From assembly GCA_028283985.1 (NCBI GenBank), contig JANQSQ010000584.1:1-27578 (forward strand): DNA of 27,578 bases. The letters are read 5' to 3'. Position numbers and translations under genes: made by a program. The notes under the pieces were generated by a model that was not told where the DNA came from, searched no databases, and was given only the letters and a program-made list of their open reading frames with translations. Origin of the DNA: Rhodothermales bacterium. GTDB lineage: Bacteria > Bacteroidota > Rhodothermia > Rhodothermales > VXPQ01. Positions 13,068 through 27,578 of this stretch are shown here, piece after piece (positions within the stretch are counted from its first letter, which is position 1; each line of letters begins with the position of its first letter).

Positions 13068-13775
13068 CTATTCCTCTCTCAACCGCACCGGTACCTCTTC
13101 CCTGGCCAATCCATAGGCAACGCTTACAGCCCATGTCTGGAGTTCCTTGTACCGTTTGCGGACCCATGCCTGCAGGACGATATTGAGCGGCCACAGGATG
13201 AGACGCACTACAAGCGCCAGCATCGTGGAGACGACTGCAATGCCGAGTCCTACGAGGTCCGAGGCGGCATGCCGGTTGCCGCTCATAAAGAGTACGAAAA
13301 TACCGAGGAGCGTACCGAGAAGACCCAGACTGAGCGCAATATAGACCGCCGCCGTGATATACCTGTCGACCTCCTTGTAGTTGTCATGGTCGAAACCGAT
13401 GTAACGCAGCGCATAGTCGAGCATGCTTTGCGGCGTGCCGCCACGGCCCTGCTCCTCGAGCAGCCGCTCGCCTGCAAGTCGATAAGGGTTGCCCGGACGC
13501 GCGTCGCCGAGCGCCGACTGGAAATCGCGTACCCCGAGATTAGAAGGGTTAATTTTCAATAATGCCTGACTGCCTCGCCACTGACGGAAGTAGCGGACAT
13601 ACGCCGTACAAAGAAAGAAGAGGCCCAGTAAAAAGACGAGAGCGAGCGGAAACTCAAAGCCCTGCGCATAGCCGAACAAATCCCAGATCGAGGTAGGAAG
13701 AAAGCTGCCCCCTACCTCCTGCGCTGGCAGGACGAGTGTGGTATCGGCGGGCTGGGGCGAAACGGATTGCATCAT
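13068..13775 (-). CDS. MotA/TolQ/ExbB proton channel family protein
   Basis: Three TM segments, with SLGLLGTLLGI and GIAVVSTMLAL carrying the family's two conserved Thr. Confidence 0.85.
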   Translation of the reverse strand: MMQSVSPQPADTTLVLPAQEVGGSFLPTSIWDLFGYAQGFEFPLALVFLLGLFFLCTAYVRYFRQWRGSQALLKINPSNLGVRDFQSALGDARPGNPYRLAGERLLEEQGRGGTPQSMLDYALRYIGFDHDNYKEVDRYITAAVYIALSLGLLGTLLGIFVLFMSGNRHAASDLVGLGIAVVSTMLALVVRLILWPLNIVLQAWVRKRYKELQTWAVSVAYGLAREEVPVRLREE

Positions 13776-13862
13776 TGTGTCGGGGGTAAAGATGAATTTG
13801 AAAAAATGTTGTGCGTGGCGAAAGAGAACAAACGGTAGAAACTACGTACTGCGGCGTGCATC

Positions 13863-27200: not shown

Positions 27201-27578
27201 GTATAAGGCGTCCCGAAAAAAGGGACTACATCGGGCAACGTTTTGTCTTCGCAGTCGATGACAGGAGCCCTCCCCCTGTTCGCCAGCGCCAAGGCATCCT
27301 CGGCGGCCTGTGCGCCTTCCCCGCCTTCGACCACCCGGACCGTCACTCTTCGCCGCGCCGTCCGAGGCGCGCCCGAGGCCGAAGACGTCATGGTCGCGAT
27401 GTAATGGTACTCCTTGCCTGCGCTCCCTGAAGGCGCCGTAAACAACGGAGACGACAGGTCCGCCGCCTCCAGAGGATCCATACTCGTGCCCCACAGACCC
27501 TCCCACTCCCATAGTACCGACGCTTCGTCCGCGTCATAGTTCATACGAAGCGACAAGGGATCCACCCCCTCGCAGTCG
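21122..27578 (-). CDS. giant repetitive adhesin-like protein (5' truncated): >=16 PKD/Ig-like repeats + putative Ig domain + DUF4402/pilin-like domain + PapD-like chaperone domain
   Basis: One uninterrupted frame to TGA 21122-21124. The frame stays open past the track start (27565 is GTG, preceded in frame by D-C-E-G), so the true start lies beyond the window. Domain calls are from motifs (see findings). Confidence 0.85.
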   Translation of the reverse strand, partial: DCEGVDPLSLRMNYDADEASVLWEWEGLWGTSMDPLEAADLSSPLFTAPSGSAGKEYHYIATMTSSASGAPRTARRRVTVRVVEGGEGAQAAEDALALANRGRAPVIDCEDKTLPDVVPFFGTPYTYDFECSVTEEPDAPTYLWEGPQAGSWLTRTDTLHTTLNVPDITIPNKNEQTEDLEYTVTLSAPGIDDVTETVTITMQESQIICWVDDASKLQPLYDIDIDEGDGNEDLTTCETEDITSLDGGPYEYRWRSSVPPAAGNLSSLLTSTARDRHTVGFITPGDVPRDIDYVISVYVTRPSEPDPNPINYDAASFRITVNNLDPVDCPEDYTVYEGSSPFRLACTDKGTHTVDEWVWSPATHLDNTDIDRVDPLFTPPDDVPFRGEQFDYTVTAMAGGVAIGGSEVSVRVQAKTRTIVDNCEGPPDDLFEGGDDFQLGCTARGSVNPYSYAWTGRGGAVVPGRLSSATIAKPVFDVPDEVTTDETYEYRWTASALNANEAVRDFTVTVRNKPDIVIACPGNPYSEYEGEDDIVLDCSATGKPSTSTYEYEWTARGNTPNISRLRGTNGSTPTFAVPGEVAADETYQYRLVATADNAEPDTANVTVTVLNKAEIMVTCADHSPEVYEGAGAITLDCSATGVPQGIAPDYEWTAGNAFDLSLLSPTDVASPTFDVPDNVERDETYEYTLTVSAQGAKDGVANVTVTVLNKLPITVACTDSSPEAYEGANDITLDCSASGGPSGAAYDYVWTGGGGTVVPGRLSSATVRNPTFDVPDDVAGDETYEYTLTVTADNAEDGAADVTVTVLDKKPLEVACATPAPVFEGAPDFDLDCTASGEPPGSTIRYAWTPRGNTPNTDRLSSATVEDPTFDVPETVQAEETYEYTLTVSAENAIDAAAGVTVRVLKLGSIALICESPPLVYEGAEDFTLVCSVSGDTGNTDYTYEWTARGDTQGTSLLSATGIPTPIFYVPDALDATTTYEYLLTASAEGVRDATAPVSVTVLNRPALAVDCASPVSVYEGSEDFALDCTASGAPEGSGYEYAWTARGSTANAALLSDVTLLAPTFKVPETVDGDETYEYLLTVSAENSDGGSAEVTVTVLDYGALSVVCADPPLVFEGSENFDLGCSASGAPEGSGYAYVWTARGSTANTDRLIAGTDGPTPTFAVPAEVDEITTYEYLLTVSADKVDDGSAQVTVTVLNEGELHVACVDPASVYEGSADFELDCSALGAPEGSVYEYAWTARGGTANTDLLSDAASLTPTFLVPEDVPATTTYEYLLTVSAENAVDGSAEVAVTVLNREVLSITCPERLDVYEGSEDFEMGCSVSGTRAPSEYTYAWTAAGNTLDTSLLSAADILSPTFYVPDDVDATTTYEYLLTVSAENTIPATEEVSVTVLDRPLLSVVCTDPGSAYEGSEDIAFDCSASGAPAGSSYDYAWTARGGTANTDQLSAADIASPTFHVPDDVDATTRYEYLLTASAENAVDATAEVAVTVLNKPALAVACADPGSVYEDSEDISFDCSASGAPGDNPEYTYAWTVRGDTPDVSLLSAADIESPTFYVPDEVIVTTTYEYLLTASAENAEDGSAEVTVTVLDIPPLAFADDSIAGRVFVLTVGETIADILLPEATGGRSPYTYTLTPVLPPDLSLKVDGDPTRTISGTPLEVRPATEYTWQVVDAKTQTAQIAFFIEVAPAPVAELLSLGVTISASSLDFGAQSADTEVSLDPMTDRISTYVSGPYHRGRMTLSPDGSEPLDENGEMDLSIELVSPVLLRSEGGVEASSLVLTPVWSYAESCEQLSSQTVGGLYTEVTLSEDDCRLLRFGGELDLTGAPSGRYAGNMDLIMRSGEREEAHTVEASVTVVPAQRVITIGPGGVRFGTSRELPVGLTEEQNLSIYPDVAFLTGEKPRGVFELSNPSLIPLEVSVSARFGHTEATQNGREIVVEDASASRLGDLSGVVDILPGVLVLMPGEKGIIRYGVEEEAHAAMAEQGYAAFFDVVSVPRRYADMDQMPEEVTEDRTARVTMRVPGVYVPGEGASQLRAQLLSISYVGTMSATFLLETQDRPFVGEVVAYDGDGRELGRRETLVYTRSRVRIPLDRMPEERSVFLRFEPRGSGQAPLPTSVEWNAPRRDIGDVGDKVRTGPPATLVQKP
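22787..26323 (-). repeat. 12 well-conserved ~98-aa PKD/K319L-like Ig repeats (plus 4 more diverged units at 26324-27578)
   Basis: Consensus L.V.C..P..VYEGSEDF.LDCSASG.P....Y.Y.WTARG.T.N...LS......PTF.VP..V....TYEY.LTVSAENA.DG.A.VTVTVL. The 3537 bp hold 12 units, about 295 bp each. Confidence 0.9.

Follow-up and report, generated by a model that had tools for sequence, protein, structure and literature searches.

The window analysed here is a stretch of 27,578 nucleotides (contig JANQSQ010000584.1 of assembly GCA_028283985.1) from an uncultured Rhodothermales genome of the phylum Bacteroidota, which consists of 671 contigs and is 88% complete. Positions 13068-27578 hold eight genes, all on the minus strand, in which the components of a chaperone-usher-like adhesin system lie interleaved with those of an ExbB/ExbD-type motor. 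Read along that strand they encode a giant protein (21122-27577), whose 5' end is truncated by the window edge; a secreted protein of 267 amino acids, here called hyp267 (20067-20870, with a probable start near 20762 judging from relatives); a first ExbD-like protein (ExbD1; 19673-20098, or from an ATG at 20056); an acidic anchored protein (18534-19658); a second ExbD-like protein (ExbD2; 18152-18526); a TPR lipoprotein of 512 amino acids (16602-18140); an usher of 861 or 879 amino acids (13863-16448 or 13863-16502); and an ExbB-like protein (13068-13775). The list of open reading frames (ORFs) bears out these eight genes as laid out in a first-pass annotation of the same DNA, together with its intergenic gaps of 10, 14, 7 and 11 bp, which are exact if ExbD1 begins at the ATG at 20056. 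The other gaps measure 99-153 bp between the TPR lipoprotein and usher genes and 87 bp between usher and exbB. The usher gene does separate exbB from the exbD genes in the window, as had been claimed, whereas in a sister arrangement described below the motor genes are contiguous. Promoter and terminator scans of the window gave counts no better than chance.

By its predicted fold the 861-amino-acid outer-membrane protein is an usher, an identification made in the first-pass annotation which is carried by the predicted structure and by homologous loci, not by sequence models applied to the window. In the AlphaFold model an N-terminal domain is followed by 6 barrel strands, a beta-sandwich at residues 303-367, 18 further strands and two C-terminal beta-sandwiches; the barrel thus totals 24 strands, with the plug-type sandwich inserted between strands 6 and 7, and the C-terminal domains are CarboxypepD_reg/SdrD_B-like. 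Foldseek searches against the PDB returned FimD or PapC for all of the top 19 matches (E from 2e-28, with a template modelling (TM) score by target of 0.69-0.72 for the pore domain), and the top 30 in the Swiss-Prot AlphaFold database are all ushers that align over the full length with E ~1e-30. ESM Atlas features link the protein at 0.98 to clusters of 860-890 amino acids, one of which carries the automatic name FimD/PapC usher. At the sequence level, the usher has no Pfam or NCBIfam match, phmmer and hmmsearch against the PDB gave nothing useful, and the Pfam Usher model (PF00577) finds nothing in the window or the whole genome at E<=10. The sole PDB sequence match of the usher profile is a Bap-like beta-sandwich, at the plug position. 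A profile built from 24 homologues recovers 1313 cluster representatives at E<=1e-3 among 1.84 billion proteins, and on this sequence evidence the usher therefore belongs to a large, mostly unannotated family. CarboxypepD_reg occurs in 28 of 48 diverse family members, SdrD_B in 21 and SPOR in 11, while four of the 48, all distant, match Pfam Usher (best 2.1e-14); weak matches to the same model (0.004-0.13) are also seen in loci L019 and L018. A conserved N-terminal strand of the usher was considered as a TonB box, but the consensus of the broad usher family also conserves such a first strand and most of the sampled loci of that family have no nearby motor, so the idea was dropped.

The giant protein is more than 2150 amino acids long and bears both pilin-like and PapD-like modules, a claim of the first-pass annotation that predicted structure and homologous loci support. 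A repeat region of tandem PKD/immunoglobulin (Ig)-like domains (22787-27577) matches K319L-like_PKD (1.6e-60, eight stretches), Ig_2 and Ig_3 as well as the NCBIfam model choice_anch_V. Behind it, on the same strand, lie a He_PIG-type Ig domain (22508-22702; Pfam He_PIG 7e-06, residues 67-131 of P0037), a pilin-like Ig domain (22040-22486; residues ~1698-1846 of the giant protein), an extra beta-strand (21995-22036; alignment columns ~243-262) and a two-domain chaperone module of the PapD type (21200-21910; residues ~1890-2126). In tblastn searches residues ~1889-2110 proved to be the portion that stays beside the usher in distant loci, where it forms a stand-alone gene of 262-291 codons directly upstream of the usher. 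These stand-alone chaperone-like genes are preceded by genes for small secreted proteins, some of which match DUF4402 (1.4e-14, 3.2e-11). Searches with phmmer gave the corresponding picture, in that residues 1690-1860 match stand-alone secreted pilin-like proteins of 172-193 amino acids (2e-17 to 8e-09) and residues 1860-2151 match stand-alone chaperone-like proteins. Here the chaperone module is a C-terminal part of the giant polypeptide and not a free, recycling periplasmic protein, and the adhesin-pilin-chaperone fusion is real, since a single open frame carries pilin and chaperone modules in more than 10 genomes. A side observation concerns window positions 21007-21211, where the final ~46 bp of the giant gene recur with few changes just past the stop codon.

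The last 468 residues of the giant protein were modelled with a predicted local distance difference test (pLDDT) score of 86 and a predicted TM score of 0.73, the pilin-like domain reaching a pLDDT of ~90. A VIA-align search of this model against 48,161 chains placed chaperone-usher chaperones in all of the top six positions (YadV 11.8, CsuC 11.7, EcpB 11.3, FimC 11.2, SafB 11.1 and FaeE 11.1), with Z-scores that span both domains of the module (model residues 207-443), and Foldseek matched the module to PapD, FimC, CsuC and CfaA with TM by target of 0.5-0.56. The fold matches of the pilin-like domain are the CooA pilin (Z 8.4), the pilin domain of PapG (7.8), donor-strand-complemented EcpA (7.6) and CsuA/B (7.6), with which Foldseek is consistent. 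In the alignment the stand-alone pilins, which are one strand short and have an N-terminal strand-like extension, stop just before the extra strand present in the fused proteins. This strand is made up of alternating hydrophobic residues and follows strand 150-162 of the model as strand 165-178 (pLDDT 93-96), which makes it a candidate for a built-in (cis) donor strand. The first-pass annotation had also named DUF4402, and here it went too far: PF14352 has no match in the window and is significant in sister loci. PapD_N likewise has no match in the window, and the stand-alone chaperones of the type B loci described below give weak ones (0.036-0.12). Pfam finds neither Por_Secre_tail nor CHU_C in the giant protein. 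It thus lacks the C-terminal sorting domain of type IX secretion in a genome that encodes SprA and has 59 Por_Secre_tail matches elsewhere, so that the usher is the natural route to assume for its export. ESM Atlas scores for the giant C-terminus and for the acidic protein (0.81-0.84) are leads only.

The motor genes are real but divergent homologues of ExbB and ExbD, as had been annotated. The ExbB-like protein scores 27.9 bits (2.2e-06) against a MotA_ExbB cut-off of 22.9 bits in Pfam, and ExbD1 and ExbD2 score 30.5 bits (4.4e-07) and 28.1 bits (2.4e-06) against an ExbD cut-off of 25.4 bits. All lie far below the cut-offs of the NCBIfam equivalogs exbB2 and tolR and are thus ExbB/ExbD-like proteins, not orthologues of the canonical genes. 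Key features of the family are nonetheless kept: both ExbD-like proteins have the membrane aspartate of the proton relay when aligned to canonical ExbD, and the ExbB-like protein retains the G-rich helix motif of its family. Canonical sets are present on other contigs of the genome, with two MotA/ExbB genes (105 and 116 bits), three ExbD genes (58-79 bits) and TonB_C genes. Judged from sequence, the motor in the window is a third, far more divergent and dedicated set of paralogues.

The acidic protein encoded between the two ExbD-like genes consists of an N-terminal transmembrane helix, an acidic linker and a conserved C-terminal domain of ~125 amino acids that belongs to an unnamed family and in which W254, Y315, G331, E347, W366 and W367 are invariant in the alignment. 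It has no Pfam or NCBIfam match, and ESM Atlas was uninformative. The first-pass annotation called it a TonB-like anchor, and of this description the topology and the gene position stand, whereas homology to TonB_C does not: PF03544 is absent from the window at E<=1 and has four genuine stretches (32.7-85.2 bits) elsewhere in the genome, and hhalign of the acidic protein against the genome's own TonB C-domains gave a probability of 0.1, albeit with a thin TonB alignment of three sequences, so a distant relation is possible. The TPR lipoprotein, recognised by an LWGC lipobox and weak TPR_17 and TPR_19 matches, has orthologues in every motor-bearing locus (1e-51 to 1e-175). Although hyp267 belongs to no Pfam or NCBIfam family, it travels with the motor module and also heads pilin clusters, and its orthologues are found in the loci of types A, B and D described below as well as in usher loci that have no motor. 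The conserved block holds no TonB-dependent receptor; its conserved outer-membrane partner is the usher.

Related loci are found in metagenome-assembled genomes (MAGs) titled Rhodothermales or Rhodothermaceae and fall into distinct gene orders. Type A comprises the window, its genus, family f26 and two further loci (L022 and L024), and runs from a big protein with C-terminal pilin and chaperone through hyp267, ExbD1, acidic protein, ExbD2 and TPR lipoprotein to usher and ExbB. There is some variation within it, as one locus (L023) has the block with no adjacent big protein and three genus relatives of the window have the big gene directly beside the usher. Type B, which often accompanies type A in a genome as a second locus, consists of small pilins, hyp267, further pilins, a chaperone, an usher of 750-830 amino acids and between zero and three accessory genes, followed by a contiguous ExbB-ExbD-ExbD-acidic-TPR set. 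Among the accessory genes are those for a two-domain DUF4402 protein, for a CarboxypepD_reg protein and for a small Plug-domain protein. Every component in the window has an orthologue in these unfused loci, whose order of pilins, chaperone, usher and two-domain DUF4402 protein is that of the Csu operon. The small accessory protein (~125 amino acids; L026:9951-10328, with counterparts in L061 and L063) is encoded between the chaperone-usher genes and exbB and matches the Plug domain of TonB-dependent receptors at 4e-05, which makes it a place where the motor may make contact; the window yielded no counterpart of it. At L052:3206-6915 a type B usher-motor locus lies directly downstream of CagX, TrbI and coupling-protein genes of a conjugation system, and the entire block may therefore be carried by a mobile element. 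Three near-identical type A usher-ExbB copies with equal bit scores occur in each of two genomes (at three places on G452:C2, and on C1, C2 and C3 of G461), which suggests recent duplication or a repeated element.

The association of usher and motor was surveyed across 285 Rhodothermales genomes with thresholds of E<=1e-30 for the usher and E<=1e-12 for the ExbB-like protein. The usher is present in 9 of the 11 genomes of genus g1, in 36 of the 38 of family f26 and in the single genome of family f16, and the ExbB-like gene has exactly the same distribution. In ~76 of 82 usher loci, as collated by hand, an ExbB-like gene is located within 3 kb of the usher on the same strand. Full type B loci were recovered from named Rhodothermales MAGs in 11 cases, and each has the motor over the part that its contig covers. 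In one genome (G448) the type A block has been split into two parts ~1.5 Mb apart on the same contig (L058 and L060; G448:C1) and both have been retained, one with the giant protein, hyp267, acidic protein and usher, the other with ExbD2, TPR lipoprotein and ExbB. The product is thus usher-like, and usher and motor co-occur in many genomes and in two gene orders, which are the two computable points, the second of them a check on the conservation of the gene neighbourhood, on which the first-pass annotation had let its proposal depend.

Two further arrangements extend the picture. Type C loci, mainly from a sister family of the same class, have longer ushers preceded by pilin-like and chaperone-like genes, and three of them add genes for a FliG-domain protein, a TPR lipoprotein, MotA and MotB. 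In these three (L037:11451-16180, L039 and L041) ushers of ~1000 amino acids are followed by a protein of 622 amino acids, which contains the middle and C-terminal domains of FliG, and then by a small TPR lipoprotein, MotA and a MotB-like protein which has OmpA and SPOR domains. Type D loci (families f22, f17 and f25) have no usher and encode a TPR protein, an adhesin of ~1000 amino acids, a PorP/SprF-like protein, a long ExbB-like protein, two ExbD proteins, the acidic protein, a second TPR protein and hyp267. The adhesin combines FG-GAP/ASH/CARDB domains with a CHU_C type IX signal, and in the examples L055 (G039:C1:686000-705900), L056 and L057 the ExbB-like protein has extra C-terminal Ig domains. 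The motor is therefore not usher-specific, as three other families combine the same module with a type-B adhesin of type IX secretion and an anchor of the PorP/SprF kind.

The composition of the locus and its conserved linkage are well supported; what they do is read from gene content. It is reasonably probable that the locus is an archaic-type (Csu/DUF4402-like) chaperone-usher system which has been remodelled to serve one giant adhesin and is coupled in function to a dedicated ExbB/ExbD-type proton motor. It is proposed that the giant protein would cross the inner membrane by Sec and thread through the usher N-terminus first. Its pilin domain, completed in cis by the extra strand, could not polymerise, and the fused chaperone module would probably dock on the periplasmic domains of the usher and remain there as a stopper and anchor. 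The pilin being apparently complete in cis and the chaperone tethered, there would be no polymerisation and hence no energy from donor-strand exchange. A stator of ExbB, ExbD1 and ExbD2 would harness proton flow to move the anchored acidic protein, which would reach the outer-membrane platform aided by the TPR lipoprotein and hyp267. Judged from the conserved gene neighbourhood, some functional coupling between motor and usher system is quite likely.

Several observations weigh against this reading of a remodelled, motor-coupled usher system. Extra usher copies that lack a motor of their own occur (G466; L059), two chaperone-usher loci with hyp267 (L027 and L054) have no motor within 10 kb, and none is seen within ~8 kb in nine sampled related loci with ushers of 1100-1570 amino acids, so the fibre pathway as such needs no motor. 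Conversely, the motor is present without any usher in type D loci. The linkage itself consists of gene order and phyletic pattern within one order, in which related genomes are not independent. The acidic protein is without TonB homology, and a complex prediction for the usher with the C-terminal domain of the acidic protein scored 0.00, a result that is evidence neither way. Finally, the AlphaFold model of the usher has a pLDDT of 70, which is moderate only, and the evidence for the cis donor strand comes from the alignment and the secondary structure and does not extend to contacts.

How the force would be used, if motor and usher system are coupled, can be answered in different ways. One good possibility, by analogy with Agl-Glt or the SprB track, is that the motor works on the adhesin once this has been exported and anchored, and would move, tension, retract, unmask or shed it. 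This is consistent with the modular nature of the motor, which together with hyp267 pairs with two unrelated outer-membrane anchors of adhesins, with the presence of TPR partners and with one ExbB-like and two ExbD-like genes, a set that mirrors AglR/AglQ/AglS. Sister usher loci carry a rotary-type FliG-like/MotAB set, and regulated adhesion is plausible in an organism that appears to be host-associated, since the window DNA is nearly complete in two coral-metagenome runs and recurs as fragments in many sponge metagenomes; no RNA run contains the locus. The occurrence of the motor with type IX/PorP adhesins suggests, as far as sequence can tell, that action on an anchored surface adhesin is favoured at least as much as the powering of export, yet gene order alone cannot separate the two.

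The second answer, more tentative, is that the motor powers or gates export, in which case the protein in the TonB position would pull on either the usher plug or the docked chaperone and so drive out a pre-folded fibre of >200 kDa that has no donor-strand-exchange energy to draw on. The adjacency of the ExbB-like gene and the usher in ~76 of 82 loci argues for it, as does the fused and apparently self-complemented pilin, which removes the classical energy source. The usher is, moreover, a plugged barrel like a TonB-dependent transporter, and type B loci encode the small protein with the Plug match beside exbB. Against export driven in this way it can be held that type B loci carry the motor despite having ordinary separate pilins, that the same motor is paired with a type IX adhesin whose export is already powered and that related ushers work with no motor nearby. 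The lack of a TonB_C domain in the acidic protein counts against it too, and the complex prediction, being evidence neither way, lends it no help.

That the motor does something else, or has no direct coupling to the usher system, is unlikely. Two further explanations can be specified. The neighbourhood may be coincidental, such that paralogous Ton/Tol genes of the ordinary sort, serving nutrient uptake or maintenance of the envelope, happen to lie beside a fimbrial operon. Sulfatase and CBM9/DUF5916 genes just downstream would fit such a set, exbB-exbD-exbD-tonB-TPR clusters are common in Bacteroidota, and the motor does occur without ushers. Coincidence is nevertheless very unlikely in view of the identical phyletic patterns of usher and ExbB-like gene across the 285 genomes and of a linkage that persists in both gene orders, in multi-copy loci and where the locus is split. 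The window set is also far more divergent than the canonical sets of the genome, the conserved block has neither a TonB_C domain nor a TonB-dependent receptor, and the downstream genes are conserved within the genus only. It is still more improbable that the usher-fold protein is a motor-gated channel for other cargo and that the pilin- and chaperone-like domains are mere Ig modules of an adhesin secreted otherwise: the window proteins do lack Pfam Usher, PapD and DUF4402 matches, Ig-like folds are common and VIA Z values of 7-8 for the pilin domain lie in a grey zone, but the chaperone matches are clearly on top for both domains and specific to chaperone-usher chaperones, the unfused orthologues stand in canonical pilin-chaperone-usher order with true DUF4402 pilins, and the giant protein has no type IX secretion signal.

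The downstream genes themselves occupy positions 7114-13194 on the same strand and encode a CBM9/DUF5916 protein and two sulfatases; the listed ORF of the former overlaps the 3' end of exbB, and a later start is likely. They were considered as members of the system and dropped, because their neighbourhood is kept within the genus only. The G+C content of the window is ~0.57-0.63 and drops to 0.51 around 20-21 kb, and the closest named protein record is from Bacteroidetes bacterium SB0662_bin_6.

Chaperone-usher secretion is the textbook case of export across the outer membrane without cellular energy, as it draws on none from the inner membrane. Its independence of ATP and the proton motive force is doubted here because the motor linkage is conserved, and a large, conserved family of ushers permanently paired with a private proton motor would revise the energy-free view of this pathway or else reveal a new way of actuating adhesins. 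With almost even confidence it may be proposed that such loci encode a new class of envelope-spanning machine, in which a dedicated, proton-driven ExbB/ExbD-type stator, together with a non-TonB transducer, a TPR lipoprotein and a secreted adaptor, exerts force on outer-membrane adhesin platforms, in this locus an usher to which the giant adhesin is fastened by its own pilin-chaperone anchor. If so, chaperone-usher secretion or the behaviour of the adhesin would be energy-dependent in these bacteria, and the module would be interchangeable between usher-based and type IX/PorP-based adhesins. That the motor module is combined with an usher in some loci and with a PorP/SprF-type anchor in others hints at a unit that energises adhesins generally in Bacteroidota. 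In joining adhesin, apparently self-completed pilin and chaperone, the natural protein resembles the donor-strand-complemented constructs engineered in structural biology, and suggests how a polymerising pilus system can become the anchor of a single-molecule giant adhesin. As the carriers are symbionts associated with corals and sponges, the system may bear on attachment to the host. The first-pass annotation knew of no described system with this combination, and the literature search agrees: within its scope, outside which most subscription journals lie, no account of an usher system that includes ExbB/ExbD or MotAB genes came to light, and no searchable paper contains the term 'DUF4402'.

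Among known systems, the archaic (sigma) Csu pathway (CsuA/B-A-B-C-D-E) and the Fim and Pap pathways share with the window the usher fold, including its plug between strands 6 and 7 as well as N- and C-terminal domains, the two-domain PapD-like chaperone fold and small Ig-type pilins that end one strand short; Csu in addition shares with the sister loci the order of pilins, chaperone, usher and two-domain subunit. Unlike theirs, the usher and chaperone of the window do not belong to the established sequence models, the C-terminal domains of the usher are CarboxypepD_reg/SdrD_B-like, a protein of >2150 amino acids carries pilin and chaperone in cis, and a dedicated ExbB/ExbD-type motor is encoded. 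The ExbB-ExbD-TonB and TolQ-TolR-TolA systems have the same MotA/ExbB channel, two ExbD/TolR proteins with the membrane aspartate, a long-linker anchor in the TonB position and TPR proteins, and the gene order of Bacteroidota Ton clusters (exbB-exbD-exbD-tonB-TPR) matches that of the type B motor. The window proteins differ from them in scores that are barely above the Pfam cut-offs and far below those of the NCBIfam equivalogs, in the absence of TonB_C, in a linker that is acidic instead of Pro/Lys-rich, in an added secreted subunit of 267 amino acids and in a partner that is an usher (or a PorP/SprF-like protein) and not a TonB-dependent transporter.

In Myxococcus xanthus the Agl-Glt machinery (AglR/AglQ/AglS, GltA-K and the CglB adhesin) exerts proton-driven force on an outer-membrane adhesin platform. 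Its likeness to the window, confined to gene content, lies in one TolQ-like and two TolR-like proteins, a TonB-like protein that spans the periplasm, TPR proteins and barrel proteins that hold an adhesin; the window differs in that its platform would be an usher, that no MreB or focal-adhesion components are encoded and that the phylum is another. In Flavobacterium, whose type IX secretion and gliding system is powered by GldLM, SprB is similarly a giant adhesin of repetitive sequence that is bound by a partner protein in the outer membrane, SprF, and is acted on by a proton-driven motor, and type D loci pair the motor described here with just such a CHU_C type-B adhesin and PorP/SprF-like protein. 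By comparison, the adhesin in the window is usher-based and has no type IX domain, and its motor is of the ExbB/ExbD family, not GldL/GldM. A further parallel comes from the Balneolaceae-type usher loci with FliG(FliF)-like and MotA/MotB genes (L037, L039 and L041), in which homologous usher, chaperone-like and pilin-like genes are likewise followed directly downstream by an ion-driven stator of the 5:2 type and a small TPR lipoprotein. These loci differ from the window in their MotAB and FliG-domain motor, in longer ushers (~1000 amino acids) and in the lack of a giant-adhesin fusion.

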